Assembly (NCBI GenBank): GCA_016235825.1 | Contig: JACRIL010000152.1 | Coordinates: 53,414-117,413 of the forward strand | Reading direction: 5' to 3' | From: Planctomycetota bacterium | GTDB lineage: Bacteria > Planctomycetota > Phycisphaerae > SM23-33 | DNA length: 64,000 nucleotides | In this document: piece by piece, positions 5,206 to 27,378 of the stretch | Layout: every line of letters starts with the position of its first letter | Numbering within the stretch: the stretch's first letter is position 1 | Notes under the pieces: model-generated | Told to the model about the DNA's origin: nothing | What the model saw: only the letters and a program-made list of their open reading frames with translations | The model's database searches: none | Program-made: the position numbers and the translations under genes

Positions 5206-6119
5206 AATAATAGCTCCTCATGTAGTTTTTCGGCGATTCGGTATCCGTCGGGAGCGCCTCCCGGTTCCGGTATCGCGCCGGTGGTGCACAGGTCGAAAAA
5301 TTCGCATCGGCCGAACATGCCGACACACGATGATGTATTCTGTGGCCACTGCTTCCAGCGGGCGCAGAGGCGGTACATTTTCACCACTTGGGCAAGCTGC
5401 TCAACAAACTCATCCATGTCGCCGGCCAGACGGGTGATTTCGCGGCGGACGAAATATTTGTCCGGGTTCGCCTGCACGTCCTCGCTGAGCCGTTTGGCGT
5501 AATCGTCCGGGGTTTCAGTTTGTTTGATTCGGATCGTGGGTTTGCGGGTTACGTCGTACAGGACCGTCGCGGCATTAGTGCCGGCCCGCTGCGCGGCCAG
5601 ATAGTACATGTTGATCTGGCTGTCGATCCTGAGCCGCTGCCAGTAATCAGAGTCCGAGCCAAGATCGACTCCGCATGTTTTGTGCTCCACGATGGCCTTG
5701 CGGCCGTCGGGCAGGGTGGCCGTGCCGTCGATCTTGCCGGCAAGTGTGACGCCGGCCATGCGTTTGAACAAAATCGAAAATTCATATTCGCTGGCGTCAT
5801 ATGCAATGGCGTCGGAGCCGTATCGCCAGGCGTACATCTGGGCCATAACGTACAGGCCGGTCCGCTGGGTCAGATTGTCCTCGACCTCGATCCGGCTTTC
5901 ATCCCAGGCCGCAAGGGCGGCGTCGGCGGGGTTTGTCTCGCCGCGTTTCATGGCGTCCAACCCGGCGTGAAACGCCTTGCCCCACGCCAGCGGCATTGAT
6001 TCGCGGTCGCGGCGCAGCCGGCAGCCGTATCGCAGCAGGCACTTTCGCGGGCAGGCCTGGAAGCACGCCATCATGCTGTGGGTCAGGCGCAGGATTTTTG
6101 GTTCGGCCGCGGTTATCAT
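5202..6119 (-). CDS. Cas4-like PD-(D/E)XK nuclease with Fe-S Cys cluster (DUF2800-like phage exonuclease)
   Basis: 305 aa; N-terminal CFQACPRKC, C-terminal CARW...C...GRCEFFDLC cysteines, central D/E-x-K segments; 4-nt overlap with Sak4-like gene. Confidence 0.55.
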   Translation of the reverse strand: MITAAEPKILRLTHSMMACFQACPRKCLLRYGCRLRRDRESMPLAWGKAFHAGLDAMKRGETNPADAALAAWDESRIEVEDNLTQRTGLYVMAQMYAWRYGSDAIAYDASEYEFSILFKRMAGVTLAGKIDGTATLPDGRKAIVEHKTCGVDLGSDSDYWQRLRIDSQINMYYLAAQRAGTNAATVLYDVTRKPTIRIKQTETPDDYAKRLSEDVQANPDKYFVRREITRLAGDMDEFVEQLAQVVKMYRLCARWKQWPQNTSSCVGMFGRCEFFDLCTTGAIPEPGGAPDGYRIAEKLHEELLL

Positions 6120-8441: not shown

Positions 8442-8659
8442 GACAGTTCTCCCTCTTTTTTGGGGGGCGCGACGAGTATCCCCGTCTCCGACGCCCGGTT
8501 TATGAACCTGTCCAAGTCCGAGGACCGGTACAGGATTCGCCTGTCGCCGCGTATCTGCCTCAGCCCGCGTGCTATCATCCGGGGCCGATACCTCAGGAAT
8601 GTCCTGTGCGAGATGCCCAGACGCAGGCAGACCTCTTTTTCTCCGATCAACTGTTCCAT
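8429..8659 (-). CDS. Excisionase/AlpA-like HTH DNA-binding protein
   Basis: 76 aa; KEVCLRLGISHRTFLRYR is a classic Xis/AlpA/MerR-like HTH_17 segment. Confidence 0.5.
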   Translation of the reverse strand: MEQLIGEKEVCLRLGISHRTFLRYRPRMIARGLRQIRGDRRILYRSSDLDRFINRASETGILVAPPKKEGELSCQK

Positions 8660-9069
8660 TATGCGATTCTCCTTTTCAGGGATTTTTCAGGGAAAGACTT
8701 GACCTTTGAGGACGCGCCGGCACCGATCCCGGAAAAGGCCGGAAGGCGTTTTGCGGCGTCCAAAAGCCGTTTTCCCGCCCAGCGGTCGTATACTTGCCGG
8801 ATGAGCCTTGTAATGTGGCCGGCGACTCTGGAATCCCCGCTGGCGAAGAGCCTTGCCAGCCGCCCGGCAATCGCCTGGATGGATGCCGCCGCCTGATCTG
8901 CCCGGACGCCTCGCGCCACGAAATGCGGGGCCAGAATTTCCGAAACGAAGGCGTCGAGTTCTTCCTGCTTGCGTTTTGCACCGGCACCATTCAGTTTATG
9001 AAGGGCCGCAAGCTCGCCAGTTGACCACGGCGTCTCGCCGTATTTCGTTGACACCATCGGGATGATCTC
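8659..9069 (-). CDS. Hypothetical protein (genuine 3' part of a 566-aa composite ORF)
   Basis: Internal start MVSTKYGETPW...; only this C-terminal ~137 codons show protein-like composition; upstream part of the long ORF is low-complexity Arg/Pro/Ser typical of out-of-frame GC-rich DNA. Confidence 0.3.
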   Translation of the reverse strand, partial: EIIPMVSTKYGETPWSTGELAALHKLNGAGAKRKQEELDAFVSEILAPHFVARGVRADQAAASIQAIAGRLARLFASGDSRVAGHITRLIRQVYDRWAGKRLLDAAKRLPAFSGIGAGASSKVKSFPEKSLKRRIA

Positions 9070-10487
9070 CTGAGTTTTGCCCCCGCGACGGCTATGCAGG
9101 CAACAGATTCTTTCGTGGGGGCAACGGGTGTGAGCATCCCTGCCGTGTGGGGGCCAAAAATCCATCCTGCCCGGCAAAACTTTTGTGTTCTCACGGCCTT
9201 TTTCATCCGCGATAATTGAGTGCATGATGACCAACACAAACAACTTGACCGCCGCAGCCCGCCGATGGACAATGCCCGTCCCTGAAAGGACACGGCGAAA
9301 TGAACAAAATCGAAGAAATCGAATCGCGGCAGAGGGATTTAGAGCAGAAAATGGCGGTGATTCAAGCATTACTCGGCCCAACGACGGAAAAACTGTTTGG
9401 GAAATTCGACGCGATAATTGCCTTGTTGGCGAATATTTGGGATGCCAAAAAGCCCTAACGAGGCCGTTTTCCGGGTTTCTCTTTTTCTTGCGAGACGTCG
9501 CAGGGAGAGCAGCCCAGCACAGCGCAGAGATGCACCTGGCATGCATGGATATCCCACAAGCGGGCTTCAAGCACCTTGAGCCTGTCCGCAAAATCCCGTT
9601 GTTCCTTTTTCCGTTTTGCCATCTAATATCTCCCTGTATGAATGTCCGGGCCTTGCGGCCCCTGACAAGCAGCTTGACCGGCGGCGGACCCGGCCTTCTA
9701 ATGGCGGGACCTGAAAGGAACCGGCGAAATGGGCGACAAACTGAAATCGGCGACGAATTGCAAAGACAGCAAAAGAGGAGAGGCGTTCCTGAAAATACCG
9801 GAATTACAGCGGCACCAGCAGATAATCGGCCTTCTGGAAGAGATACTGAAAGTCGTGAAGGCGATACGGGACGGCCGGAAATAGGCCTAGTATCGCCTGT
9901 CGGCTGCTGTAACATTGAACGCGCAACCCTTGCATTTATAATTCCGGTTGCGCGAACCGTCCGAATTTTTACGCTTGTTGCATTTGCCTTCGAGCGCCCA
10001 CATAAGCATGGCGCACCGTATCTCCTTGCTTGCAATTTTGACCGTAGCCTCGATTCTTCGCAGGCCCTCCAGCACCGCCTCGGTCTCCGGGTTGAATTTT
10101 TGCTTCCGCGCCATGTTTCTTCTCCTGTATTATGTGTTCGCCCTTCGGGCGATGTGTGTAAAAGTGAACCGGCCAGGACTGGGAGCCCTGACCGGTTCGC
10201 GACGAGCGCTGCTTCCGGCGAAGGATTTTCGCCCGTCGCAATAAGTGAACCGGCCTCAAGGGGGGCTTGAAGCCGGTTCGCAGTGGGTGTTGCCTCTGAT
10301 AAAGAAACGCCCACCGCATGTTCGTTTCTCTCGTCTTTAGTGTTGAGTATCAGAGGCATGAGTTAATAATACAAAAGAATACAAAGAAAGGCAAGAAGAA
10401 AATGTTCAATCTTTGTATATTTACATAAACTTAGGTCTTTAAGCATTTTAACTATACGTATATTTTCCAAAAGGATAGAATACTGAC

Positions 10488-11135
10488 ATGGGCATAGGAC
10501 TAAAAATCAGACTTATTCGTGAAACAAAAGGTTTAACGCAAATTGAATTGGCCAAACTTATTGGGGTCGATAATCAGACTATTAGTAACTGGGAAAACAA
10601 TAAAAACACTCCCAGAGGCGAGATGATGGGACGACTTGCAGAAGCTTTTGGATTAACTCCTGAAGAAATTTCCAAGGATATATCACTGGAAAAGGATGTT
10701 GAGGAATACTACATATATTTAATGCAAATATGGGCTTTTCTTCCTATAGAAAAGTATGATTTAGCTTTTGCATTGATGGCAGAATTACTTACATTGCCTC
10801 AACGCAAAGTAGCCTATAACCTATTGAAAAAACTAGCCTTAATTAAAAATGAAACTTTACTACCTTTGCCAACAGACTCATTGGATGAGTCGGCTCGCAA
10901 AATTGGCAAACAATTTCCTCGAGATCCGGTAGCTTCAGATAAACCGGCCCCTGCTTCCGGCTTCGCCGAGGCTTCGCCGGACAAGTCACCGGAGACTTTG
11001 CAGGGCAAAAGCCCGGCGGGGTCGAAAACTCCGCTGGCGGACATGGCCCAGAAAGCTGTCGGGCAAGTCCGTCATCGCGAAGAATCCCGGCAAGAAGCTC
11101 AGCGGCAACAGCCCCGCCGGAAGGCAGGCGCGTGA
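10488..11135 (+). CDS. XRE-family (Cro/CI-type) HTH transcriptional regulator, candidate prophage repressor
   Basis: N-terminal LIRETKGLTQIELAKLIGVDNQTISNWENNKNTP HTH_3 motif; sits in a ~35% GC patch (10360-10900) with AT-rich promoter-like upstream region; C-terminal Pro/Ser/Ala-rich tail is GC-rich. Confidence 0.7.
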   Translation: MGIGLKIRLIRETKGLTQIELAKLIGVDNQTISNWENNKNTPRGEMMGRLAEAFGLTPEEISKDISLEKDVEEYYIYLMQIWAFLPIEKYDLAFALMAELLTLPQRKVAYNLLKKLALIKNETLLPLPTDSLDESARKIGKQFPRDPVASDKPAPASGFAEASPDKSPETLQGKSPAGSKTPLADMAQKAVGQVRHREESRQEAQRQQPRRKAGA

Positions 11136-11389
11136 GGACTTGACAGAGCATGGAAATCCTGGCATCCTTGCACTCGTGGACTTCCCCGGCAACCATGCCC
11201 GGGATCACACAAATGTTGGCATTCATGGCAGTCGCCCTGAAATTGTCCGGTCCGCCCGTTGCCGGCCCGGTCGAATAACCTGGCATAATCGACCGCCCGG
11301 CGGGATTGGCCGTATACTGAATGTTAGGGATGCGTTAGTATGAAGGCAAGGGAAAAATAGGACTTTTTTGATTTTACGAGGTGATTCTC

Positions 11390-12739
11390 ATGGCCAAACT
11401 GTGGGACAATATAAAGGCGCAGATTCGCTATCTGGCCGCACTCGACCCGGTGGATGGCCAGAAGATCGAGGAGTGGGGCAAGCTCTTGGCTGGCCAGCTC
11501 TACGCTAGGCGGGATAAATTCGACCTGCGGCAGGTTCTGGCCGAGACAGGCATTCGGGAACCTTGGGAAAGGCGGGCAATCGAAGCCGCCTACGGCCTGC
11601 TGATCGAGCGGGTCTGGAAGGACCAGAAGGTTACGGCGGGCGAGCGGTCGGCCCTGGATTGGTCGGCCAGGATGCTCAATCTGAGGCCGGATGACGCAGC
11701 CAGGCTGGAACTTCAGACCGGCTTGCAGGTCTTCGGAAAATGCCTGGCCGATGCGATGGACGGCGGCGAGATTGCTCCCGAGGATAAAATCCGGTTGTCG
11801 ATCATAGCCGGCGACCTGAACGCCTCTGTCCCGCTGCTTATGGGGCAATTCTTCGCCTCGCAGGGGGGGGCGTTTCTCCGCGGTATGTTCGTGAATTTCG
11901 CCGAGAATCATCAGTTTAACGATGCCGCTTTGGGCAAAGTCCTGGATGCCGTAGGATTTTTGGGGCTGGGCAAAAACGCCTTTCTGTCGGCCATCAGATT
12001 GCAGGCAATGCAGACCGCCGAGGAATATCTGGCCAGCGCCAAGGCCGACGAAAATCTCAGTCCCGAGGAGGAAAAGACGATCCTCTGGATGCTGGATAAC
12101 TTCGGTTTTGATGCCGAGCACCGTAAATATTTTGAGGATGAGATCGTGGATATGAAGTCCCTGATGGCCGTCAGGGACGGTAAATTGCCGACGATCAGCG
12201 CCCGGGATGTCGAACTGGATTCAGGCGAACTTGCCCATTATCAGGGACCGGCCTCATATATCGACGCGAAGCGGAAGAAGACCGGAGAGGGAAACGCCAA
12301 ACGCGGCAGGCTCACGATAACAGATTCCCGGATCATCTTCGCGTCAGTCGACGGCTCGCACCAGTTGAAACATTCCAAGGTTCTTGAAATCCAGAGCGAT
12401 CACAGCAACGCCTTCAAGGTCATGGCCTCCGGCAGAGGGGGCGGCATATATGTCCTGGACAGGGTGCCTCGGATGGCTGCCGCAATTTATACCTTTGCAG
12501 TCCGGCGCGTAAAACGGACTGCCCATGAAAAATACGAAGGCCTGCCTTCACGGCATATTTCGCGCGATGTCCGCCAGCGTGTTTTTCAGAGATATGGCGG
12601 CCGCTGTGCGGAGTGCGGGGCAAGCCAGTATCTTGAACACGATCACATAATCCCTGTGGAAAAGGGCGGCAGCAACAGCGACCAGAACGTTCAGCTTCTC
12701 TGCCGCAAGTGCAACCTCAAGAAACGTAATCTTATATAG
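11390..12739 (+). CDS. Multidomain HNH endonuclease (TerB-like helical repeats + bPH/GRAM-like domain + C-terminal HNH)
   Basis: C-terminus RYGGRCAECGASQYLEHDHIIPVEKGGSNSDQNVQLLCRKCNLKK = canonical HNH (H-N-H with CxxC...CxxC). Middle GRLTITDSRIIFASVDGSHQLKHSKVLEIQ resembles bacterial PH/GRAM. N-terminal DGEIAPEDKIRLSIIAGDL-type repeats resemble TerB. SD gaggtg 8 nt before ATG 11390. Confidence 0.6.
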   Translation: MAKLWDNIKAQIRYLAALDPVDGQKIEEWGKLLAGQLYARRDKFDLRQVLAETGIREPWERRAIEAAYGLLIERVWKDQKVTAGERSALDWSARMLNLRPDDAARLELQTGLQVFGKCLADAMDGGEIAPEDKIRLSIIAGDLNASVPLLMGQFFASQGGAFLRGMFVNFAENHQFNDAALGKVLDAVGFLGLGKNAFLSAIRLQAMQTAEEYLASAKADENLSPEEEKTILWMLDNFGFDAEHRKYFEDEIVDMKSLMAVRDGKLPTISARDVELDSGELAHYQGPASYIDAKRKKTGEGNAKRGRLTITDSRIIFASVDGSHQLKHSKVLEIQSDHSNAFKVMASGRGGGIYVLDRVPRMAAAIYTFAVRRVKRTAHEKYEGLPSRHISRDVRQRVFQRYGGRCAECGASQYLEHDHIIPVEKGGSNSDQNVQLLCRKCNLKKRNLI

Positions 12740-12750
12740 GAGATCCAAAC

Positions 12751-13449
12751 ATGAAAACGACGATCGTCGCTCTCGCGTGTCTATTTGTTGCCGCTCTGTC
12801 AGCCCTCGCCCAGACCAGCCGGCCGGCCTCGGCGCCGGCATCGCAACCAGCCTCAGGCCCGGCCGAAGATATTGCTATCCTTGTGCAGTGCGGGGAAAAG
12901 GCAAAACCCATCTTCGATAAAATAAGGGGGCATATAATTGACCATCTTAAAACGCTCAGTTCAAACCAACGTTTTTATATTATTCTCTGGGAAGGATGCA
13001 GAACTGACGATCCAAAATTTAAAGATCATTATCGAAGCCTTTTACTGGAAGGCCCCGAAAAAAACTTTGTTTCTGCCACGAAAGAGAACCTGGAGAAAAC
13101 TGAAAAACTGATGGTGGCAGATTTTCTGACACGATCCGGGGGCAATCCGTATCCGGCAGTAGATCGCGCCTTGGCTTTGCTTCGCACAAGCAAGGCATCG
13201 AAGCGGATTATTTTTATGGTCCACAATCTCGGTGATTTGGAAGTGGTTGACGATAATGCCGGGACTAAAGATAGTCATATCAAAATTCTTCCTAAAATAG
13301 CGACCCAAGCCAAGGCAGCAAGGATCAAGGTTGATTCAATCAGTTTTGAAGCAGTCAAGGATACTGAAGGTATTGCAACAGGATATTTAGAAAAAAATCT
13401 CTCCACGCCTACCGGCGGTACTGTTACAAAAATCGATATATCCAGATAG
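12751..13449 (+). CDS. Secreted protein with PAS-rich linker (possible vWA-like fold)
   Basis: Signal peptide MKTTIVALACLFVAALSALA followed by SRPASAPASQPASGPAE linker; lower-GC 3' half. Confidence 0.45.
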   Translation: MKTTIVALACLFVAALSALAQTSRPASAPASQPASGPAEDIAILVQCGEKAKPIFDKIRGHIIDHLKTLSSNQRFYIILWEGCRTDDPKFKDHYRSLLLEGPEKNFVSATKENLEKTEKLMVADFLTRSGGNPYPAVDRALALLRTSKASKRIIFMVHNLGDLEVVDDNAGTKDSHIKILPKIATQAKAARIKVDSISFEAVKDTEGIATGYLEKNLSTPTGGTVTKIDISR

Positions 13450-13455
13450 GCACTC

Positions 13456-13950
13456 ATGCCCCGCAGGCCCAGGCGACAGACAACCACGATGAATCTCATG
13501 CGTCCGCCGACGGCGACGGAGCGGTCGGCCAATCGCCGGGTCTGGAAGCGGATCGAGGAGATCGACGACGAATACGCCTTCAACCTTCAGATGGTCAAGG
13601 ACAGCCAGGACATGGTCCTGAAAAAGGCCTACGCGAAAAACTGCCTGAAGTTCCGGGCCGAATATCGCCGCCTTATGGCCGACCTGCTTCTGGACATGCT
13701 TCACCGCATGGAGCAAGCGGACAAGGCCCCACAGCCCAAGCCGAAGGCCCGGCGGCACACGGCGGCGGAGATCGAATACGAGGCCTGTGAGGTCGCCAAA
13801 CTGCGGAAGATTATCCCCGCGACGGAAGATCCGAAAGACCGCGAAAATTTTCAGGCCCGGATGGATTATCTGATGGGCGAATATGCTGGCGAGGAAAAGG
13901 CGAAGCTGATGGAATGGGTCAAGCGGTGGGAAGAGGGATCCAGGCCCTGA
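13456..13950 (+). CDS. Hypothetical protein
   Basis: 164-aa ORF, 6 nt after preceding gene, coding-like composition, no motif recognised. Confidence 0.35.
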   Translation: MPRRPRRQTTTMNLMRPPTATERSANRRVWKRIEEIDDEYAFNLQMVKDSQDMVLKKAYAKNCLKFRAEYRRLMADLLLDMLHRMEQADKAPQPKPKARRHTAAEIEYEACEVAKLRKIIPATEDPKDRENFQARMDYLMGEYAGEEKAKLMEWVKRWEEGSRP

Positions 13951-13971
13951 TAAAAAAGCCCCGCTGCTGAG

Positions 13972-14214
13972 TTATCTATCGAAAAATTCTTCCTTGGGAA
14001 TCTGGAATTTCCGTGAGATCATGGCCAAATGTGGAGCGCGAACCATAGCGCTGGAACTATTGCAGCATTTATGCTGAAGGCGCATGAAAAACATCCTGCC
14101 TTCAATTACTTTCTGGAGTTTTTTCTCCGCCCCCTTGCCTTGAAGAACATCAACGCCATGTTCCTTTAAAACCTCCATCACCCGATCCCATCTCTGGCAT
14201 CGGCGATGACTCAT
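13972..14214 (-). CDS. HicA/YcfA-like toxin homolog (possibly degenerate)
   Basis: 80 aa, 4-nt overlap downstream of a HicB-like gene; aligns to HicA core (..L..HG......G(S/A)..) but the conserved GSH His appears replaced (KGAEKK). Confidence 0.35.
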   Translation of the reverse strand: MSHRRCQRWDRVMEVLKEHGVDVLQGKGAEKKLQKVIEGRMFFMRLQHKCCNSSSAMVRAPHLAMISRKFQIPKEEFFDR

Positions 14215-14576
14215 GCGTTAACGCTTTCAAGTTCCTGAACGGTCTCGAAAGATGAACCCTTCGGCATTGGAGGGGGCCCCTTTTTCCTCTGAAGAAGTTT
14301 CTCGGCATCCCTGACAAACATCGGGTCTAATTTCTTGGCCCCTTCGGTTTTTTTCCAAAACTCCAGCGGGGCGAGCGAGATAACCTGTACCCGTGAATCC
14401 TTGGCCGCTTCTTCAAGCAGGCAGCGGATGGATGCCTTCAATTCAACTAAGGCCTCTACGACACAATCGCCCATGCCAATCTGATCGGTCGTAAGAGAAT
14501 GTGCGACCCACGCCTTGCCGACGGAATCTTCGCTTGGATAAATCACCCATATATCGCTATGCTTTGGTTGTGTCAT
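14211..14576 (-). CDS. HicB-like antitoxin (UPF0150 / RNase H-like fold)
   Basis: DIWVIYPSEDSVGKAWVAHSLTTDQIGMGDCVVEALVELKASIRCLLEEA matches HicB N-terminal pattern (EDGxxxAxxPDLPGxxTxGDTxEEALxNAKEAL). Confidence 0.5.
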   Translation of the reverse strand: MTQPKHSDIWVIYPSEDSVGKAWVAHSLTTDQIGMGDCVVEALVELKASIRCLLEEAAKDSRVQVISLAPLEFWKKTEGAKKLDPMFVRDAEKLLQRKKGPPPMPKGSSFETVQELESVNA

Positions 14577-14692
14577 TCGCCGTCTCCTTCACTTTCGGCC
14601 GCAATTGTCGCCTTTTCGCAGTGCCCGTCAAGGCAAATCGCCACCGCCCTACCTGAATTATATATCGCTACTATCGGCAAAACCATGACCTC

Positions 14693-15946
14693 TCACCCTA
14701 TTTTTTTCGCCGCCTCGATGGCCAGTGCCAGGTCAAGTTCGGCGTAGTGGTCTGCCATGCCCAGCGAGCGGTGGCCCAGGACGGCCCGGGCGACGTCCAG
14801 GCCCTTGCCCTTGAACTCCTGCCGCAGGCGTGTGGCGGCGGAATGTCGTAGCTGGTGCGGGTGCCAGTGGGGGACCTTCGCGGCCTTGCAGGCGTAGTCG
14901 ACGGCCCGGCCGTAGGATTGAGGCGTGTAGGCCTCGCCGGGCCGTTTCTTGGGCGATTCCTTGACGTTCGTGCCGGGTTCATTGCCCTGGCCGGCAGGCG
15001 TCTGGCGGCCTTCGTGCAAGGCCTTGCGGCGTTGTTTGTCGGCCTGGGCCGGAGAGAAGCAGAAGACGCCGGCGGGCCGGTCGAGATATTTGCGTAAAAT
15101 CTCCTGGGCCTTGGGGCCAAGCGCGATCGCACGTTTGTGGTCGTGATGCTCGGTCTTATGACTGCCGGGGCGGTATATCCAGATCGACTTTTTGCGGTCA
15201 ATGTCGCCGGGCTGCAAGGTAACCAGTTCGCCGGAGCGCATACCAGTCAACTGCTGAATTCGGACCATGTCGGCGACAATAGGCGACATGTGCGGCAGGG
15301 CGGCCTTGACATCTTTTTCCGGCACGGATTCCACAGGCTCGCTCTCCTTGACGCCGGGAACACCTTTGCGAAGTCCCTCTACGGCCAGCAGGCCATGCCA
15401 GACAGTGGCAGGCACAAGCTGTTCCCCGGCCGCCCAGCGGAACATCCGCCGGATGATATTTACCCTCTGATTGATGACTTTGCGGGCGAGTTGGGCAATA
15501 ATCATTTTGTGCCGGACCTCTTTGAGTTTCAGGGGGCCGAAGTCCGCGGCCTGCATTCCTGGGCAAAATTCCACAAGATGCTGAAGGGCATATCGGATAT
15601 TCGCAGCTTCACCTGTGGGCCGGCCGTCCGGCTTGCGATATCGCTGATCGGCATGGGCCAGAAAATTTTTAATCAGACAGGCAAGGCTGCCATCCCACTT
15701 CCCCGGCTCAAAAATTTTCCCGCCGATCTCCGCCTTGAGCACCAGATTGCGGTACAAGTCCCTGGCGACTGCCTCGGCCACGGCCCGGTCCTTCGTGGCC
15801 CATCGCGCCCCCTCAGGCACAAGCGGTCGGGATATATATCTTTCATCCCCAGGCAGTTTTACCCGCCAGTGATAACGGCCGTGATTGAGATAAATGGATC
15901 CCGGAATTTTGTCGCTTTTTGCTGCTGGCTTGGCGGTATTTGTCAT
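14693..15946 (-). CDS. Tyrosine-type site-specific integrase
   Basis: 417 aa; C-terminal catalytic residues HQLRHSAATRL ... LGHRSLGMADHYA (R..HxxR..Y); gene ends 74 nt from tRNA-Ala 3' end. Confidence 0.75.
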   Translation of the reverse strand: MTNTAKPAAKSDKIPGSIYLNHGRYHWRVKLPGDERYISRPLVPEGARWATKDRAVAEAVARDLYRNLVLKAEIGGKIFEPGKWDGSLACLIKNFLAHADQRYRKPDGRPTGEAANIRYALQHLVEFCPGMQAADFGPLKLKEVRHKMIIAQLARKVINQRVNIIRRMFRWAAGEQLVPATVWHGLLAVEGLRKGVPGVKESEPVESVPEKDVKAALPHMSPIVADMVRIQQLTGMRSGELVTLQPGDIDRKKSIWIYRPGSHKTEHHDHKRAIALGPKAQEILRKYLDRPAGVFCFSPAQADKQRRKALHEGRQTPAGQGNEPGTNVKESPKKRPGEAYTPQSYGRAVDYACKAAKVPHWHPHQLRHSAATRLRQEFKGKGLDVARAVLGHRSLGMADHYAELDLALAIEAAKKIG

Positions 15947-16019
15947 AAAACTATCGTAACATATTTACCGCCAAAGTCAAGCCCCTGATATTATTCAATA
16001 TTTACAGCCTTAAACTGAT

Positions 16020-16092
16020 TGGAGACACGGGGGATCGAACCCCGAACCTCTAGCTTGCAAAGCTAGCGCTCTCCCAATTGAGCTATGTCCCC
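16020..16092 (-). tRNA. tRNA-Ala (anticodon UGC)
   Basis: Reverse complement GGGGACATAGCTCAATTGGGAGAGCGCTAGCTTTGCAAGCTAGAGGTTCGGGGTTCGATCCCCCGTGTCTCCA: cloverleaf with G3:U70 Ala identity pair, anticodon loop TT-TGC-AA, TTCGATC T-loop. No encoded CCA. Confidence 0.85.
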
Positions 16093-16132
16093 TCTCGTGC
16101 ACGCAACCTTAAAAGTTGTTCCGCCGGCAAAA

Positions 16133-16206
16133 TGGGCCTGGACCGATTCGAACGGTCGACCTTGCCCTTATCAGGGGCACGCTCTAACCAACTGAGCTAC
16201 AAGCCC
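16133..16206 (-). tRNA. tRNA-Ile (anticodon GAU)
   Basis: Reverse complement GGGCTTGTAGCTCAGTTGGTTAGAGCGTGCCCCTGATAAGGGCAAGGTCGACCGTTCGAATCGGTCCAGGCCCA: near-identical to canonical bacterial tRNA-Ile(GAT); anticodon loop CT-GAT-AA. Confidence 0.85.
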
Positions 16207-21225: not shown

Positions 21226-22185
21226 TCAATTGCCGAACATGGTGCGGTATTTCATGAGCGCCAGGCAGATGGCCTCGATATTCTCCAGAGGCACGCCGTC
21301 GTCGACCTCGGCGGTCAGCCACAGGCCGCCCGCCGGACTGCCCATCGCTTCGACACATTCGCGAACGTGGCGATCAATCTCATCGGGCGCGGCGAACGGA
21401 AACAACTGCCTGTCCAGGTCCAGGTCGATGCACACCTTCCCCTTGCAGACTCCGACAAGGTTGTCCAGGCCGTTGGCCCGAATCTGCGGATTGACCACGT
21501 TGACCCCGCAGTCGGCCAGGTCCGGGATGATCTCGTAAATGTGGCCGTCGGTGTGCATATAGACGCATGCGCCGGCCTTGCGGCACCGGCCGTAGATCGC
21601 CGCGAAGCATGGTTTGAGGTATTTACGCCACTTGGCGGGACTGATCGGCAGACTGTTCTGAATGCCCAGATCGTCGCCGAAGTGCATCATATCGTCGCCC
21701 TTTAGCCCGGCAATCGCCAGATCGACCTGCCTGAGGTTGTACTCCAGCACCACGTCGATCAGTTTCTGAAGTTCCGGCGGCTCCTCGGCAAAATCGACCA
21801 TTATTTCCTCAAAGCCCCGCAGGTCCGCCAGCCGGAGGTACATGAAACCGTGCGGCAGGCCCGCGTCTTTTGTGGGCATCCGGAGTTTCCATACATCTTG
21901 GCGATTCGGCAGCGGATGCATCTTCACGATGGCCTCGTGGCCGTGGTAGACGTTGCTCCAGACGCAGCCCCATGCGTCCGTGTGGTCGCCCGCGGCATAC
22001 GTCTGGCTCCACAACTTGTCATAGTCGGTCTTGCCGGCCGGCAGCAATTCGGAATATCGTCCGGCGATCGCGCTGAGCTGGTCGCGGTACTTCATCCACG
22101 CCGCCGGCAGCACGCCCAGCCGCACAGGAATCATTTTTGGCCGGTCGAACTTCATGGCGCGAATCTGGTCATCCGACATCTTCAT
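21226..22185 (-). CDS. Uroporphyrinogen decarboxylase (URO-D) family protein (UroD/MtaA-like)
   Basis: 319 aa; HTDGHIYEIIPDLADCGVNVVNP and overall layout typical of URO-D-fold proteins frequently found beside glycosidases in PVC bacteria. Confidence 0.6.
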   Translation of the reverse strand: MKMSDDQIRAMKFDRPKMIPVRLGVLPAAWMKYRDQLSAIAGRYSELLPAGKTDYDKLWSQTYAAGDHTDAWGCVWSNVYHGHEAIVKMHPLPNRQDVWKLRMPTKDAGLPHGFMYLRLADLRGFEEIMVDFAEEPPELQKLIDVVLEYNLRQVDLAIAGLKGDDMMHFGDDLGIQNSLPISPAKWRKYLKPCFAAIYGRCRKAGACVYMHTDGHIYEIIPDLADCGVNVVNPQIRANGLDNLVGVCKGKVCIDLDLDRQLFPFAAPDEIDRHVRECVEAMGSPAGGLWLTAEVDDGVPLENIEAICLALMKYRTMFGN

Positions 22186-22221
22186 GATATAGGTTCCTTC
22201 ATTATCCGATGTAATGATAGC

Positions 22222-22407
22222 ATGTATGAAATCGTATTGCGATATTTCATGCGGGCCAAGATCGACGCCGCCGCAAAGATGCTCCGGGCCGGCTCGTCCG
22301 TAACCGCCGCCGCAATGAACCTGGACTTCTCCAGCAGCCGGTGCTTCGCCGCCGCCTTCAAACGCTTCACCAACCGCAGACCCGGCAGCCTGCTGAAATC
22401 GTTATAG
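22222..22407 (+). pseudogene. Truncated AraC-family HTH fragment (C-terminal helix-turn-helix only)
   Basis: YFMRAKIDAAAKMLRAGSSVTAAAMNLDFSSSRCFAAAFKRFTNRRPGS fits the second AraC HTH (..A..lL...sv.eIA...GF.d.syFsr.FKk.fG.sP); upstream sensor/first HTH absent (region occupied by uroD-like gene on opposite strand). Ends exactly where the low-GC island begins. Confidence 0.35.
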
Positions 22408-22584
22408 TCAAATGAAGACCGAAGATATGCTGTTTCCAGGAGCAATTCTCGCAAGAAACGCTTGCAGAGTTTTAGACGCAAGAGATAATGGAAGAAATCT
22501 TCTGTACCACAAGACTGTTTGGATCTGTTATTGTGCGAAGAAACTTATGAAACCGGAAATACCGTGCAATCAGGAGGTTCGACA

Positions 22585-23253
22585 ATGGACCGTTCAAACA
22601 TAGAATCGCAATTGGTGGAGTATTTACGCAAAGCCGGCAGAGATTTCATTCTCCTGTCGAAACTTAAACAGTCGTTACAAAAAGCTATCAGCAACAAGGA
22701 CGCAGTCGCACAGATAGAGAAGAATAATCGGCTGTCCATAATTAAAAAGGGGAAATCTACATATCTGGCTTTTCGGCAGCCTCCGGAGGTATTCGTGTTC
22801 ACTGCTATACAAAAGAAACCAGGACAATCCCCCGGGCAGATCGCGAAATCGACACCTTTGAAAATCCCCGACTTCATCGGGGCGATTAATGTTCTGATCG
22901 CGCGAGGCGATGTGCGTTGTGAAATTAATTCCAAATCATCCAAATATGACATCAAACTGCATCCGAGCAAGCCCAGCGGCAGTGGCAGCGAGGCGAGAGA
23001 AGACCGCGACTTATTCGCCAAAGCGGTCCGGGAACTGGACCGGGGGCAAATCTATATCCGCATCCATGCCGTCCGTGACCGCCTCGGCTGGACGCGCGAA
23101 CGATTTGACAGGATGATCGAGACGCTCCGCGACGAAGGCGTGATACAGTTGCACGCCGGCGACATTACCACGATGTCGAAGGAAGAGGTTGAAAAGAGCT
23201 TCGTCGATGAAAATAACTTCTTTTTTGCCACGCTCACGTGGAGAAAACCATGA
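22585..23253 (+). CDS. Triple winged-helix (wHTH) DNA-binding protein, first gene of low-GC three-gene island
   Basis: 222 aa from ATG 22585 preceded by strong SD caggagg (22571-22577); three wH-like segments (IESQLVEYLRKAGRDFILLSKL; PGQIAKSTPLKIPDFIGAINVLIARGDVRCEI; IRIHAVRDRLGWTRERFDRMIETLRDEGVIQLH). GC ~45% vs ~65% flanks. Confidence 0.5.
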   Translation: MDRSNIESQLVEYLRKAGRDFILLSKLKQSLQKAISNKDAVAQIEKNNRLSIIKKGKSTYLAFRQPPEVFVFTAIQKKPGQSPGQIAKSTPLKIPDFIGAINVLIARGDVRCEINSKSSKYDIKLHPSKPSGSGSEAREDRDLFAKAVRELDRGQIYIRIHAVRDRLGWTRERFDRMIETLRDEGVIQLHAGDITTMSKEEVEKSFVDENNFFFATLTWRKP

Positions 23254-25283
23254 CAACGCCGCAAGAACTCCTTAAGTCGAACAATCCTTTCTATTCGAAC
23301 CGCGTCGGCAATCCATGGGATGACCCCTATCCCGACGTGGAATCCATAAATCATAATGCCTTCGACGGCATTCTCCGTTTGCTCGGTTACAAGACCAAGA
23401 ACCCGAAGGACGCCTGCGCGGGTCTCGTTCTTGGCGAGACCGGTACAGGAAAAACGCATCTCTTGAAGCGGATTCTTCACGCGAGCCGCCGCACGGAGAC
23501 GCCAGCCGTCTTTACTTACGTCCGTCCCATCCTCGATACCACAGCACCGATGCGATACCTGCTCCGCGAGATCGTGATAAACCTTGGCAAAGAGAACGAT
23601 GAAGCACAAAAACGGACTCAACTCGACCTATTCGCGGCGCGAATCCTTATCGATTTCCTCCGCAACGACCAGGACCCAAATCGAAACGCCAAACTATTAA
23701 AGAAACTGGATGAGGATCCTTTCTACATATATCAGGCCAAGATTGATCCGAAGATTATGGAGGAGGCGGAGAAGCGGGCAATTCGGTATCTCCGGCGCAT
23801 CAGTCCAGACATAAGTTCTGATCTGCTGCGAGTGATTGTAAAATACCGCAAAAAGGAGATGCGCGACCTGGTGGTCTGCTGGATGCGAGGCGATGTTATC
23901 GACGGCGAGGAGGAAGCAAACCATCTCGGTACCACAACACGTGTGGACAAGGATATTGGCACTCTAGAACAAGAGGCTAAAGGTTTGATCCTGAGTCTTG
24001 GACAACTGATGGCCCGTTACGGCCGTCCGATGCTCGTCTGTTTCGATCAGCTAGACAACCTGTATGAACCGAGCGCCGTTCGCGCCCTTGAAGCCATGAT
24101 TAACATTCTGGTCCGCGAGGCGCAGGCTATGCTACCTCTTGCCTTTGTCCGGGCGGATTCTTGGAATGAACGTTTTAAAAAAACGATGGATATAGCCGTA
24201 GTTGAATGTCTGGAAGCCAATCGTTTTCTCTTGGAAAGCTGCTCGATGGAGCAGGCCGAGGAACTCGTACGTCGCCGCGTCCAAGCGTTTCTTGGTTCCC
24301 AGACCGAAATGGTGTTCCCTTGGCTGTGGGGACAACTCAAAGATCAAATCAAAAATGGTTATTTCCCAGGCCAAGTGATCGTCCTCGCCAAGCGGACCAT
24401 CGAATCTGAAGGAGAAGAAGGCATTCTCCGCAAATTGGAGGAAACGTACCACAATGAGTGCGAGGCGGTTCTCGCCGATCTCGCGTCCTGGTCTCCGGAT
24501 GGCGACCGACTTGCTTTGGCGCTGGAGACCTACCTGCAAGCGAGTCCCGACATCAAAGGATTGCGCAAGGGCAAAGAAAAGCATGTCTCTTTTGTATTCG
24601 AGGCTCCCGGTGAAAAAGGGAAGGACATCCCGCATATCGCCATTGTCAATGTCGGAGGCGGGTATCATCGCATCGGCAACTGCCTCAAAACGGGAATCGA
24701 ATTCCTTCAAAAATATCCCGAAGGGCAAGGGCGATGTTTCTACATCTCAGATGCTCGCAACTCCATCCCAATTCCTCCTCGGTGGAAAGCCACAAATGAG
24801 TTGCGCCAGACGTTCGAGACCATGGGCGGAATCATGCTTATCCTGGACAAGGATGCAGTCGCGCGATGGTACGCGATCACCTCGCTCGTTTTCAAGGTGA
24901 ACGAGGGTGACATACAGGTCGAGGAAGGTTCCGGGAAACTCAGGGCGGCAACCCGCGAGGAACTGAACCAGATGTTACGGGAAGGCATTTCAAAAGGTTC
25001 GTTCCCTTCCTTGCTGACGGCGGTTAAAGGTCCGGAGACGGCCAAGCCGCAGCCGGAAACGCCGAAGCGGCAGGATGAGACGCGGATGATGGCGTCGGTC
25101 AAGAGTTGTCTCAAGGACAGCCCCATGCGGATGTTGACGATCTCCGTTCTTCTCGGCAAGCTTATACAAAACAAGGTGAAGCTGGATCATGCCGGGCTTC
25201 TCGCATTTTTGGGACAGCATAAGAATATTTTCCGTTTGTTCGAGAACAAGCAGGGCATGACGGTTATGCTCGACCAAACTTGA
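23250..25283 (+). CDS. P-loop NTPase (AAA+/STAND- or Orc/Cdc6-like Walker A GxxGTGKT) with C-terminal wH-like domain
   Basis: Walker A LVLGETGTGKTHLLKRIL, Walker B-like RPMLVCFDQLDNL; ATG 23250 overlaps stop TGA of upstream gene (ATGA) indicating translational coupling; C-terminal LTISVLLGKLIQNKVKLDHAGLLAFLG wH-like. Confidence 0.6.
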   Translation: MTTPQELLKSNNPFYSNRVGNPWDDPYPDVESINHNAFDGILRLLGYKTKNPKDACAGLVLGETGTGKTHLLKRILHASRRTETPAVFTYVRPILDTTAPMRYLLREIVINLGKENDEAQKRTQLDLFAARILIDFLRNDQDPNRNAKLLKKLDEDPFYIYQAKIDPKIMEEAEKRAIRYLRRISPDISSDLLRVIVKYRKKEMRDLVVCWMRGDVIDGEEEANHLGTTTRVDKDIGTLEQEAKGLILSLGQLMARYGRPMLVCFDQLDNLYEPSAVRALEAMINILVREAQAMLPLAFVRADSWNERFKKTMDIAVVECLEANRFLLESCSMEQAEELVRRRVQAFLGSQTEMVFPWLWGQLKDQIKNGYFPGQVIVLAKRTIESEGEEGILRKLEETYHNECEAVLADLASWSPDGDRLALALETYLQASPDIKGLRKGKEKHVSFVFEAPGEKGKDIPHIAIVNVGGGYHRIGNCLKTGIEFLQKYPEGQGRCFYISDARNSIPIPPRWKATNELRQTFETMGGIMLILDKDAVARWYAITSLVFKVNEGDIQVEEGSGKLRAATREELNQMLREGISKGSFPSLLTAVKGPETAKPQPETPKRQDETRMMASVKSCLKDSPMRMLTISVLLGKLIQNKVKLDHAGLLAFLGQHKNIFRLFENKQGMTVMLDQT

Positions 25284-25297
25284 CAGGACATGTTACC

Positions 25298-27310
25298 ATG
25301 CTAAAGGCAACTGTATCTGATTGCCATCTCGCACAACGCTGTCCTCGCCTGCTCGCCAGGCTGAGGGGCGGAAGCGGGAATGCCTGGAAGGTGGGCCTTG
25401 ACAGTTCCGGCGATATTCCGGGGCAGTTGTTTCACGATCAGTTCGCCGCTCCGTTTCATAAGGACATGGCCGCCGCATTCGGAAAGCCGGGCGACTCGTT
25501 TGCCGAGATCCTGCGCGGTCCGGCTGAATCGCTGGGAGATCGAATTTCCTTATTTCTCAGGAATCAATACTTCATCCCCTACCTGGAGAAGCACAGCGAA
25601 ACGTTGACGGCTGACCAGGCCGTAGGGCTGGCGGGGTGCATGACGCGATGGAGCGCGGTCATGGCCGTATTCCTCGCCCCTCTTGTGGGTGACGAAAAAG
25701 ACACCCGCGCGGTTGTCCGGCGCGTGTTTCATCCTCCCGAGCGGTTGCTGCAGGCCGAGCACCAATATGAAGACGGCGAACGGCTGACCGTTTCGGGTCG
25801 TTATGACGCCCTTCTTCTGGACAGCAGCAAGGGCGAGGCTGTTGTGCTGGATTTCAAAGGGCGGCGGCCAACGGATATCTGCGAGGATTTCACGCAGATC
25901 GTTCTGTACGCTTGGTTGATCCGCGAAAGCACCGGCGTCGTTCCCCGGGGGATGGTACTCTACCTCGATGGCGATGGCGGGACAGCCGAATTCCCTGCCG
26001 CGGAGATCGAGCGGGGCATCTGCCAACTGCCCCATCTGTTCGACGATGTGCGGCAGGTAGTAGAGAATCGCGGCCCCCTGCGTCGGGCTGCAGATGCGGC
26101 ACTTTGTCGGGTGTGTCCCTTCGATAAGGCATGTACTGACGAGCCGGGCGTATCCGTTGCTGTCGGGAAGCCACTGAATCCCGTGGCAAAACAATTGGAT
26201 ACTAAACCCCCTCCGCTCGGGAAACCCATCGTGAATTTCCAGGATCAACAGGAGGGTAAGGTCGCTCTGGGGCGGCTCTGCGACCTGCTGGATCGGGTAG
26301 GGTTGCCTTCAAAACCATACGGGGTCATTGTCGGCCCCAGATTCCTGCGTCTACAGATCGTGCCGGAACTTGAGAAAGGCGTTACTGTTGGCAAATTGGT
26401 TAATAAGGCCGAGGATCTCCAGGTCGCACTTGCCTTAAAGGCTCCGCCGCTGATACAGGCTCAACCGGGCCATATCAGCGTCGATCTTCCTCGTAGTAAC
26501 CGTGAGCCGCTGACGCTCGGCGCACTGCTGGAGACTGGCGTTGCAAACCGCCCGGCCTCGACTTGTGCGTTTCCCCTTGGGATGACAATCGAGGGGAAGG
26601 TGTTCTGGGTCGATCTGGCAGAACCCACTATGACCAGCATCCTGATCGGCGGCACTTCCGGCAGCGGCAAGAGCGTGCTCCTGCAGTCCGTCGTCGTGGG
26701 TCTTGGCCTTTGCACCCCACCGGGCGGAGTACGGTTCGTGCTAATCGATCCCAAGCGGGTGACTTTCACGCAATATGCAAAATTTTCATGCGTGGAGAAT
26801 CCGTTATATCTCGATATCGAACCTGCCCTCGCTCGCCTTAAACAATTGGTCGAAGAGATGGATGATCGATACCGCCTCTTTGAGAACGAGGGCGTGTCTG
26901 ATGTCCTCTCCTATGCCAGTCAGACGGAAAAAACGATCTGCCATTATGTTGTCATTATCGACGAATACGCGGATATGATTCTGGACCGTCAAATGCGCAA
27001 TGCTCTGGAAATCTGCATTCAACGCATCGGTCAGAAAGGCCGAGCGGCCGGATTTCACCTGATTCTGGCCACGCAACGGCCGGACGCCAAGGTGGTGACG
27101 GGGATCATCAAGGCAAACCTTCAACTCAAGATATCCCTGAAGGTCGTGTCTGCCAATAACAGTCGAATCATCCTCGACGAGGCAGGCGCGGAATACCTGA
27201 TTGGCCACGGTGATATGCTTGTCGGAGGCAGCACCGCTCTTGAGAGGCTGCAAGGTCCCCTCGTAACGAAGACCGAGCTTGATCAACTTGCTCTGCGGCA
27301 AACCCGATGA
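25298..27310 (+). CDS. Fusion protein: N-terminal Cas4/RecB-like PD-(D/E)XK nuclease with 4-Cys Fe-S cluster + C-terminal FtsK/SpoIIIE-family DNA translocase ATPase
   Basis: Nuclease: Cys at SDCHLAQRC plus CRVCPFDKAC (C-x2-C-x5-C), motif II GRYDALLLD, motif III VVLDFKG, QxxxY as TQIVLYAWL. Motor: Walker A ILIGGTSGSGKSVLLQS, Walker B YVVIIDEYADM, FtsK signature GFHLILATQRPDAKVVTGIIKANLQLKISLKVVS...LDEAGAEYLIGHGDML. Start could alternatively be TTG 25280 overlapping upstream stop. Confidence 0.65.
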   Translation: MLKATVSDCHLAQRCPRLLARLRGGSGNAWKVGLDSSGDIPGQLFHDQFAAPFHKDMAAAFGKPGDSFAEILRGPAESLGDRISLFLRNQYFIPYLEKHSETLTADQAVGLAGCMTRWSAVMAVFLAPLVGDEKDTRAVVRRVFHPPERLLQAEHQYEDGERLTVSGRYDALLLDSSKGEAVVLDFKGRRPTDICEDFTQIVLYAWLIRESTGVVPRGMVLYLDGDGGTAEFPAAEIERGICQLPHLFDDVRQVVENRGPLRRAADAALCRVCPFDKACTDEPGVSVAVGKPLNPVAKQLDTKPPPLGKPIVNFQDQQEGKVALGRLCDLLDRVGLPSKPYGVIVGPRFLRLQIVPELEKGVTVGKLVNKAEDLQVALALKAPPLIQAQPGHISVDLPRSNREPLTLGALLETGVANRPASTCAFPLGMTIEGKVFWVDLAEPTMTSILIGGTSGSGKSVLLQSVVVGLGLCTPPGGVRFVLIDPKRVTFTQYAKFSCVENPLYLDIEPALARLKQLVEEMDDRYRLFENEGVSDVLSYASQTEKTICHYVVIIDEYADMILDRQMRNALEICIQRIGQKGRAAGFHLILATQRPDAKVVTGIIKANLQLKISLKVVSANNSRIILDEAGAEYLIGHGDMLVGGSTALERLQGPLVTKTELDQLALRQTR

Positions 27311-27329: not shown

Positions 27330-27378
27330 GTGCAACCCTGGCACGGCAGGCGTGCCGTCGCCTGACGGCAAGTTGCAC
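27330..27378. terminator. Nested GC-rich hairpins between convergent genes (terminator-like, no T-run)
   Basis: gtgcaac(27330-27336)/gttgcac(27372-27378) outer stem; inner ggcacg/cgtgcc (27340-27356) and gccgtc/gacggc (27354-27370). Confidence 0.25.

Follow-up and report, generated by a model that had tools for sequence, protein, structure and literature searches.

A single-chain fusion of a Cas4/RecB-type nuclease and an FtsK motor in a mobile three-gene cassette with a predicted anti-invader role

A stretch of 64,000 nucleotides from a Planctomycetota bacterium (the window) contains a gene, here designated C, that appears to join a nuclease to a DNA-pumping motor, and the question it raises is whether such a protein exists as one chain and, if so, which DNA it would act upon. 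The initial annotation treated gene C alone, missing its cassette context, and proposed a fusion of a Cas4/AddB-type nuclease with FtsK that would act as a one-chain analogue of HerA-NurA or AddAB. The fusion itself is genuine: a Cas4/RecB-type Fe-S nuclease and an FtsK alpha-beta motor with intact ATPase motifs share one polypeptide (Table 1). Translation yields a single intact ORF of 670 aa without internal stops, the product of which is identical to GenBank MBI5724653.1 ('PD-(D/E)XK nuclease family protein [Planctomycetota bacterium]'), and every motif originally quoted (SDCHLAQRC, GRYD, DFK, QIVLY, CRVCPFDKAC, GTSGSGKS, VVIIDE and the GHGDML block) is present at the place given for it. Two folded domains had been predicted, and the AlphaFold2 model (mean pLDDT 89.9) contains two folded modules joined by a disordered linker, the length and sequence of which vary in a family alignment of 40 sequences, the alignment on which all statements of invariance in C are based. 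Neither a membrane anchor nor a gamma domain was detected in C. The fusion is common to ~65 independent near-full-length clusters at 40-65% identity and is continuous in distant Myxococcales variants; therefore a frameshift or assembly artefact, which had been named as a possible source of error, is ruled out, the fusion being conserved over many independent assemblies.

Table 1. Features of the cassette and its surroundings (window coordinates; aa positions refer to the gene named)
Feature	Residues	Coordinates	Strand	Remarks
Gene A		22585..23253	+	222 aa; fast-evolving; GenBank HZA50_11880
Gene B		23250..25283	+	677 aa; Orc/Cdc6-STAND-type AAA+ ATPase, inserted alpha/beta domain, C-terminal winged helix
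B middle domain	aa 415-598 of 681-aa ORF	24480..25031	+	candidate inactive REase insert
B C-terminal winged helix-turn-helix		25068..25280	+	found; a feature that counts for class membership
Gene C		25298..27310	+	670-aa nuclease-FtsK fusion; putative effector; third of cassette A-B-C
C, Cas4/RecB-type PD-(D/E)XK nuclease domain	aa 1-282	25298..26143	+	catalytic motifs and four Fe-S cysteines conserved
C, C15		25340..25342	+	N-terminal ligand of predicted [4Fe-4S] cluster
C, D170	motif GRYD 167-170	25805-25807	+	catalytic residue
C, D185-F-K187	motif DFK 185-187	25850-25858	+	catalytic residues
C, Q200...Y204	motif QIVLY 200-204	25895-25909	+	catalytic residues
C, C270-x2-C273-x5-C279	CRVCPFDKAC 270-279	26105..26134	+	three C-terminal ligands of predicted Fe-S cluster
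C, linker	aa 283-311	26144..26230	+	flexible, Pro/Lys-rich; pLDDT <50
C, FtsK alpha domain	aa 312-400	26231..26497	+	precedes ATPase; Pfam FtsK_alpha weak, E 0.0016
C, FtsK beta (RecA-like ATPase) domain	aa 401-670	26498..27307	+	Pfam, PDB, Foldseek, motifs
C, Walker A	GTSGSGKS 452-459	26651-26674	+	invariant in 40 sequences
C, Walker B	VVIIDE 551-556 (D555, E556)	26948-26965	+	invariant in 40 sequences
C, arginine finger	R582	27041-27043	+	invariant in 40 sequences
C, sensor-1	TQRP (Q593)	27071-27082	+	Q593 invariant in 40 sequences
GC-rich inverted repeat		27330..27378	.	between C stop and convergent downstream gene

The domain searches suggested by the initial annotation recover both halves above their gathering scores (PDDEXK_1, E 5e-9; FtsK_SpoIIIE, PF01580, E 2e-34). 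Cas4 models match C at E 1e-7 to 1e-9 but fall below the NCBIfam cut-off (TIGR00372, 30.2 versus 65). The nuclease has the fold of solved Cas4/RecB-type Fe-S PD-(D/E)XK enzymes, its best structural matches being AddB, AdnAB, Dna2 and Exo5; the top PDB sequence-profile matches are ACE1 (9iac) and Cas4 SSO0001 (4ic1), and ACE1, a Cas4-family defence nuclease, is the closest solved relative by sequence. Like these enzymes, C carries the D...(D/E)xK, QxxxY and C...CxxCx5C motifs. D170, K187, Q200 and Y204 are invariant, and DFK reads E-F-K in most homologues; in the model, the catalytic motifs lie on strands 171-175 and 180-187 and helix 194-212, and the domain bears a helical N-terminal extension of ~145 residues. 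Judged by these motifs, the nuclease is apparently active. Its four-cysteine signature, of a pattern (C...CxxCxxxxxC) shared with Cas4, AddB and Dna2, is predicted to bind a [4Fe-4S] cluster: C270, C273 and C279 are all invariant, and the fourth ligand would be C15, invariant in 40/40 sequences inside an R-C-P-R-L motif. The Cas4/AddB-type signature reported initially thus stands as to its four conserved cysteines, but the conserved N-terminal one is C15, not C9 (SDCHLAQRC). ACE1 is an ssDNA endonuclease that assists a defence system (pAgo systems); unlike the contexts of Cas4 and ACE1, the cassette has no cas1, cas2 or pAgo gene, and the partner to which the nuclease of C is joined is a ring translocase, not an SF1 helicase. 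Assignment to CRISPR-associated Cas4 proper was rejected on the TIGR00372 score and on the gene neighbours, which in the window are A, B, glycoside hydrolases and a heparinase-like gene.

The motor matches FtsK in the PDB at E 4e-47, and the model superimposes on the FtsK motor with a TM of ~0.8 normalised to the motor; both the FtsK alpha domain and the overall alpha-beta fold were found, at 30-33% identity to cellular FtsK/SpoIIIE. Like those proteins, C possesses Walker A and B motifs, an arginine finger and a sensor-1 glutamine, which, with the arginine finger upstream of strand 4, are the motifs by which HerA-FtsK motors are defined in PMC10853773. The block GFHLILATQRPD...GHGDML aligns with the FtsK proteins of P. 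aeruginosa and E. coli, as had been claimed, but it belongs to the beta (RecA-like) domain and is not 'gamma-proximal'; the gamma domain is absent, PF09397 being listed for cellular FtsK matches only and never for the C family, and C ends at the beta domain. Unlike cellular FtsK, C has no N-terminal membrane domain, long linker or gamma (KOPS/XerD) domain, begins with a nuclease and sits in a mobile cassette. It was accordingly rejected as a cellular FtsK orthologue, on its nuclease N-terminus, its lack of PF09397 and a score of 155 against the cut-off of 1,566 for the NCBIfam FtsK equivalog NF007615. Because FtsK-alpha is present, the motor can be placed in the chromosome-handling FtsK lineage. 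In biochemical terms, C is most reasonably read from its sequence as a nuclease that pumps DNA at the expense of ATP.

Gene C is the third gene of a translationally coupled cassette, A-B-C, of 4.8 kb, in which A and B overlap at the stop codon of the former and the start of the latter, with 14 nt between the stop of B and the start of C. Gene A begins with an ATG preceded by AGGAGG (22572-22577). A word-indexed search finds just 5 homologues of gene A, and wherever a locus extends far enough upstream, B is preceded by an A-like gene. Members of the A family return recurrent weak matches to winged-helix families (MarR_2, TrmB, HTH_Crp_2, AbiEi_4, CvfB_WH, EAP30), and gene A, a putative DNA-binding specificity or sensor subunit, probably carries three wHTH-like units, as counted in a sequence alignment (A4). 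The B protein has a Cdc6/ORC/TnsC/MuB/BrxC-like fold plus a wHTH, a Walker A lysine at K72 (numbering of the 681-aa ORF), a Walker B region that reads CFDQLD, and Pfam matches to NACHT, AAA_16 and nSTAND. Between its AAA+ core and its wHTH lies a confidently modelled insert with the alpha-beta-beta-beta-alpha-beta topology of the PD-(D/E)XK core (by DSSP, helix 422-435, strands 440-444, 452-457 and 463-470, helix 475-492 and strand 499-505), which suggests an REase-like fold. The insert lacks a conserved D...(D/E)xK; neither sequence nor profile comparison relates it to the PDB, Pfam or the nuclease of C, and fold searches give no match. Desulfonema magnum possesses a homologue of B (P0150).

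The three genes occur together in all nine distinct loci that reach far enough upstream (the window, L001, L003-L007, L009 and L010); in the loci read, their flanks are unrelated housekeeping or metabolic genes that differ between genomes. Myxococcales variants keep the order A-B-C at 29-33% identity. Gene fusions tie the parts of the cassette together: one protein (P0068) joins B to FtsK-alpha and FtsK and is 32% identical to B over 584 aa (E 3e-88), and in others B, nuclease and HerA form one chain of 1,436-1,581 aa with an A-sized gene upstream. The same nuclease is paired with FtsK or HerA/DUF87 motors, sometimes with an additional 3'-5' exonuclease, the arrangements seen being nuclease-FtsK (the window), exonuclease-nuclease-FtsK, nuclease-HerA, B-nuclease-HerA and B-FtsK. 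Stand-alone matches to the nuclease are located on contigs too short to include a motor gene. The spread over phyla is patchy (Planctomycetota, Synergistota, Desulfobacterota and Myxococcota), with about ten full-length matches among the matches listed from 185,579 species-representative genomes and, for the nuclease profile, 60 clusters at E <= 1e-30 among 1.84 billion representatives. The GC content of the cassette is 0.543, versus 0.606 and 0.632 in its flanks; this dip, the patchy distribution and the fast evolution of A are signs of horizontal acquisition.

A class with these components has been described computationally, and an anti-invader role proposed for it, as the Orc/Cdc6-coupled 'HerA/FtsK capture systems' (PMC10853773, NAR 2024, sections 22 and 26). 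The components given there are an active REase, an FtsK bearing FtsK-alpha, and an Orc/Cdc6 AAA+ protein in which an inactive REase domain separates the AAA+ core from a C-terminal wHTH; some of the systems add a gene that evolves rapidly and encodes 2-4 wHTH domains. The locus matches the text description of this class in combining an active PD-(D/E)XK nuclease with a HerA/FtsK motor that here keeps FtsK-alpha; in an Orc/Cdc6-family AAA+ protein with a domain inserted ahead of its C-terminal wHTH; in an extra fast-evolving gene, probably of wHTH type; and in its variable fusions, 3'-5' exonuclease variants and motors from different HerA/FtsK clades. The text of the paper does not identify the nuclease as a Cas4/RecB-type Fe-S enzyme. 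The locus, itself uncharacterised, is a genuine member of a class predicted to act against invaders, and its architecture is not new: the initial annotation, which knew of no characterisation of the architecture, was right inasmuch as we found no experimental study of any member of the family or class in the literature, but the class had been predicted in 2024 (PMC10853773).

Other systems that couple nucleases to HerA/FtsK motors are more distant. DndH (DptH) and SspH likewise carry both a restriction-type nuclease and, at the C-terminus, a HerA/FtsK motor on a single chain; they are the large subunits of DndFGH and SspFGH, systems described as restricting invasive DNA or phage, with phage protection shown for SspFGH. 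Unlike C, they are ~1,600-1,800 aa long with many extra domains and are partnered by DndF/G or SspF/G, usually alongside phosphorothioate modification, and C matches just their C-terminal ~300 residues (positions ~1446-1761 of the SspH model). Membership of DndFGH/SspFGH was rejected, since the partners of C are A and B and the scanned neighbours include no dnd or ssp gene. In HerA-NurA, HerA-Sir2 and HerA-DUF4297 the effector (NurA, Sir2 or DUF4297) is a separate protein with another fold, a HerA with its own accessory domains serves as motor in place of FtsK alpha-beta, and none has an Orc/Cdc6 partner. HerA and AdnAB match C structurally only in part, over one domain each, and C, with its PD-(D/E)XK nuclease and FtsK-type motor in place of NurA or an SF1 helicase, was not assigned to HerA-NurA, AddAB or RecBCD.

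On balance, it is likely that C is the effector of a mobile anti-invader cassette of the Orc/Cdc6-coupled HerA/FtsK capture type. In this scheme, A, as a hypervariable multi-wHTH protein, and B, as an ATP-dependent DNA-binding switch, would recognise foreign DNA, or alternatively replication, segregation, transfer or packaging intermediates of it, and would next recruit or license C. C would form an FtsK-like hexameric ring on double-stranded DNA and pump it with ATP; the six nuclease domains tethered to the ring would cut the DNA at ends, nicks or single-stranded regions during reeling-in, so that the invader would be destroyed. Hexamer formation, DNA translocation and the interaction of A and B with C are steps that we infer. 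Because the gamma domain and a modification enzyme are missing, the choice of target would fall to A and B and would not depend on KOPS or DNA modification. Several points count against defence: the cassettes examined lie mostly among housekeeping genes outside recognisable defence islands, PADLOC has no dedicated model for A, B or C, and the two activities call for different substrates, FtsK travelling along duplex DNA and Cas4-family nucleases normally requiring ssDNA or free ends.

The repair analogy drawn by the initial annotation, a housekeeping double-strand-break resection machine functionally equivalent to HerA-NurA or AddAB in a single chain, is very improbable, even though the best structural matches of the nuclease (AddB, AdnAB, Dna2 and Exo5) are end-resection enzymes and nucleases partner HerA-FtsK motors in archaeal repair. 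A resection machine is difficult to reconcile with a rare and patchy distribution, a composition that appears horizontally acquired, linkage to a hypervariable wHTH protein and a STAND/Orc-like ATPase at each of the nine loci with enough upstream DNA, and the lack of linked Mre11/Rad50 or RecA-pathway genes in any locus read; the conservation of the three genes as a unit, their sporadic occurrence, the low GC content and the fusions between partners favour an anti-invader system instead. Mobility would also suit a selfish element, of which the cassette would be the transposition, transfer or segregation machinery, with B as a TnsC/MuB-like target-DNA activator, the PD-(D/E)XK domain as a TnsA-like end-cutter and FtsK as a TraB/TcpA-like transfer pump: the flanks differ in every genome, the GC content dips, and PMC10853773 speaks of 'mobile gene neighborhoods' that mix mobile-element and defence features. 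This explanation is improbable, however, as no transposase, recombinase, relaxase or replication gene lies in or beside the conserved unit in the loci read; the nuclease is of the Cas4/RecB Fe-S class and not the TnsA class; the window shows no inverted or direct repeats at the ends of the cassette, only short, low-identity GC-rich matches of the kind expected by chance; and tblastn with the nuclease domain gives no match on 72,556 plasmids (PLSDB) or 50,697 phages (INPHARED), a result that is neutral regarding defence.

Slightly less improbable than a selfish element, but still unlikely, is an abortive-infection or toxin-like variant in which A and B would sense infection and unleash C on the host chromosome, with death or arrest of the cell. 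The CFDQLD region of B and its NACHT, AAA_16 and nSTAND matches resemble STAND switches, and STAND NTPases are described as major players in immunity (PMC10853773); moreover, profile scans of the cassette and its neighbours found no modification enzyme or other self-marking function, and the motor is of the chromosome-handling lineage. Against this variant, C lacks the gamma domain through which FtsK is guided by KOPS sites on the chromosome, and three putative winged-helix-type DNA-binding modules and one fast-evolving subunit are better suited to target-specific recognition.

Capture of foreign DNA remains the preferred reading, and a bolder form of it, which we put forward only tentatively, is that the cassette is a modification-independent, 'initiator-mimic' restriction machine: A, as a hypervariable triple-wHTH protein, and the Orc/Cdc6-like B would recognise invader origins or segregation/packaging intermediates and load a soluble hexameric FtsK ring with six tethered Fe-S nucleases, which would shred the foreign replicon. 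If this were true, a chromosome-segregation motor would for the first time have been shown to be repurposed to drive a restriction enzyme that stands alone, and what tells self from non-self would be the specificity of loading and not marks on the DNA.

Among known DNA pumps, FtsK is one of the fastest. In a soluble form, joined in one chain to a Cas4-type nuclease and placed under the control of an ATPase resembling those of origin recognition, it would provide a compact, tractable model of HerA/FtsK capture, for the question of how foreign DNA is found and destroyed without marking of the cell's own DNA; DndFGH and SspFGH may use the same logic. The capture class as a whole rests on comparative genomics, and this clean 4.8-kb unit, with all its catalytic motifs intact and confident structural models, is thus well suited to be the first member tested biochemically and by phage challenge. 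One branch of the capture systems, moreover, has as its apparently active nuclease an Fe-S enzyme of Cas4/RecB type, which links it to the biology of ACE1, Cas4 and AddB.

Downstream of C, the GC-rich inverted repeat (gtgcaac...gttgcac, with an inner ggcacg/cgtgcc stem) has no T-run and is not called by a terminator scan; from its sequence, it is a possible bidirectional terminator.

C is one uninterrupted open reading frame on translation; it starts with ATG in GenBank, an in-frame TTG further upstream at 25280 being possible, and its product matches exactly MBI5724653.1, an entry derived from a metagenome-assembled genome of the Planctomycetota. The initial annotation described it as a Cas4-like nuclease fused to an FtsK translocase, and the analysis bears this out: all of the motifs that it quoted are in place, domain searches recover both halves, the N-terminal region does not model as a non-nuclease fold, and no frameshift divides the sequence into separate genes. 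Cas4 models from NCBIfam and PADLOC match residues 160-280 (E 1e-7 to 1e-9, under the curated Cas4 cut-off), and residues 319-661 align with the FtsK motor of P. aeruginosa and E. coli among PDB sequences (E 4e-47). A profile of the nuclease domain only, compared with PDB sequences, matches ACE1 (9iac, E 8e-4) and Cas4 (4ic1, E 5e-3); ACE1, an ssDNA endonuclease that assists Argonaute defence, is the nearest solved sequence relative of this domain. From an alignment of 40 family sequences, AlphaFold2 gave a confident model (mean pLDDT 89.9), which consists of two folded modules (1-282 and 312-670) separated by a disordered Pro/Lys-rich linker (283-311).

Features of the window (nucleotides) and domain matches on protein C (aa)
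Feature	Position	Strand	Remarks
Orphan, 566 aa	8659-10359	-	near integrase
Protein, 452 aa	11381-12739	+	C-terminal HNH domain; near integrase
Tyrosine integrase	14693-15946	-	abuts tRNA-Ala and tRNA-Ile
tRNA-Ala	16020-16092
tRNA-Ile	16133-16206
Paralogue, 775 aa	16514-18841		N-terminal Glyco_hydro_20b
Paralogue, 775 aa	18872-21199		N-terminal Glyco_hydro_20b
URO-D-like gene	21226-22185		strand opposite to next ORF
ORF with HTH_18 match	21850-22407		AraC-type; match at ~22237-22400
A	22585-23253	+	putative wHTH-type protein
B	23250-25283	+	Orc/Cdc6-STAND-type AAA+ ATPase
C	25298-27310	+	670 codons
C, PDDEXK_1 (Pfam)	aa 146-279		E 5e-9
C, FtsK_alpha	aa 317-398		weak match
C, FtsK_SpoIIIE (Pfam)	aa 411-595		E 2e-34
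Protein, 605 aa	49186-51003	-	weak PD40 beta-propeller repeat match only
Orphan, 994 aa	52967-55951	-	no Pfam or PADLOC match
Large orphan	55954-57639
Large orphan	57564-59984
BatA/VWA protein	59981-62482

A search of 5.8 billion clusters yielded ~65 near-full-length relatives of C (40-65% identity), which belong to Planctomycetota, Synergistaceae and further uncultured lineages. They share one architecture, and every one lacks an FtsK gamma domain and a membrane anchor. In the family alignment, C15, D170, E/D185, K187, Q200, Y204, C270, C273 and C279 of the nuclease are invariant or nearly so, as are Walker A (452-459), Walker B (D555, E556), the arginine finger R582 and sensor 1 (Q593) of the motor; on the strength of these catalytic motifs, both enzymes look active. 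The nuclease-domain profile retrieved 374 clusters from 1.84 billion representatives, 60 of them at E <= 1e-30: the nuclease family is real and rare.

The initial annotation overlooked the context of the gene: C is the final gene of a tight three-gene unit in which A has an AGGAGG site 7 nt 5' of its ATG, the ATG of B overlaps the stop codon of A, and 14 nt separate the stop of B from the start of C. The cassette shows signs of horizontal acquisition, its GC content being 0.543 versus 0.606 and 0.632 in the flanks. Homologues of A, B and C keep the same order in all nine distinct loci with enough upstream DNA, and the flanking genes, mostly housekeeping (AlaRS, Hsp70/GrpE, MetRS, transporters), differ from locus to locus. 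Myxococcales variants (29-33% identity) retain the order, and two Synergistaceae loci carry one additional orphan gene between B and C. This orphan (525 aa; 4320-5897 in locus L007, likewise in L006) has no Pfam match and a weak C-terminal match to PDC-S62 of PADLOC.

B matches only generic P-loop families by sequence (AAA_22, AAA_16, NACHT, DnaA), and its structural model is confident (pLDDT 89, pTM 0.89). In the model, the AAA+ module and the wHTH flank an alpha/beta domain (residues 415-598) with the alpha-beta-beta-beta-alpha-beta topology of a PD-(D/E)XK core; the domain has no conserved catalytic triad, and no search made gave a match confirming an REase-like fold. A is fast-evolving (five matches in a word-indexed search); its alignment points to three wHTH-like units, and members of its family recurrently match MarR, TrmB, Crp, AbiEi and other winged-helix families weakly.

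Fusions of the partners indicate that A, B and C function jointly. In P0068-P0073 (homologous proteins of 1,023-1,099 aa, with an A-like gene upstream), a B homologue (32% identity to B over 584 aa, E 3e-88) is joined directly to FtsK-alpha and FtsK, and in P0271 and P0280 (1,436-1,581 aa; an A-sized gene lies upstream of P0280) a single chain combines a B-like AAA+ domain, a C-type nuclease and a HerA-type motor. In other relatives the nuclease is joined to HerA/DUF87 motors, or a 3'-5' exonuclease or YbjN domain is added, and at one locus a 296-aa nuclease stands alone after a B-like gene; the C-type nuclease has been repeatedly coupled to differing HerA/FtsK motors. P0068 and P0070-P0073 have no Cas4-type nuclease domain; on its contig, P0070 (L044, 2070-5255) is flanked only by the A-like gene on the upstream side and by an orphan of 151 aa on the other. 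In the stretch 4965-10398 of L045, P0076 (1,014 aa), a B-FtsK fusion of more distant kinship, lies between a protein of 352 aa that matches a winged helix weakly and a Ser/Thr protein kinase, with terminase-like genes a few kb away.

The architecture is not novel in kind; it belongs to a class of predicted anti-invader systems already described by computation. [quoted passage not shown] Every testable element of A-B-C fits that description, the candidate REase insert of B and the putative wHTH count of A apart. The Cas4/Fe-S nature of the nuclease found here goes unmentioned in the text of the paper. A 2026 paper reuses the capture-system concept for BREX-related systems. In its logic the cassette resembles DndH and SspH, and phage protection has been demonstrated for the related SspFGH. 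We found no experimental study of this family in the literature, and PADLOC has no dedicated model for A, B or C. The present analysis adds the operon, the structures of the partners and the evidence from fusions, and it identifies the nuclease as a Cas4/RecB-type Fe-S enzyme. A-B-C does not amount to a discovery of a new kind, but first experiments would find a good target in it.

A-B-C is probably an A/B-directed anti-invader cassette with C as its DNA-pumping nuclease effector. A and B would recognise foreign DNA, or intermediates that arise as it is replicated, transferred or packaged, and would load C or license it. C would assemble on duplex DNA as a hexamer like that of FtsK and pump the DNA, while its nucleases, linked to the motor by a flexible tether, would cut ends, nicks or single-stranded regions. 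Because there is neither a modification gene nor a KOPS reader, specificity must sit with A and B. An abortive-infection variant, in which the cassette attacks the host chromosome, is unlikely though not negligible. A transposition or transfer module of a selfish element, which resemblances to TnsC, MuB and TcpA suggest, is about as unlikely; the absence of any recombinase, relaxase or terminal repeat and of matches among PLSDB plasmids and INPHARED phages weakens it. The biochemical idea of the initial annotation, a processive DNA-degrading machine, is reasonable; housekeeping end resection, in line with its analogy to HerA-NurA and AddAB, is very improbable and is weakened by the rare and patchy distribution and by the partner genes.

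Elsewhere in the window, 8659-16206 is a probable integrated element, inside which GC falls to 0.44 (10-11 kb). The tandem Glyco_hydro_20b paralogues appear to have arisen by local duplication. What looks like a truncated regulator remnant borders A-B-C on the left; its HTH_18 match is limited to the last ~55 residues, and the rest overlaps the URO-D-like gene. GC drops again (0.43-0.48 at 49-51 kb) across the 605-aa protein, and AT skew is extreme around the 994-aa orphan (-0.44 to -0.56 at 53-55 kb), which is followed by two large orphans and the BatA/VWA protein.
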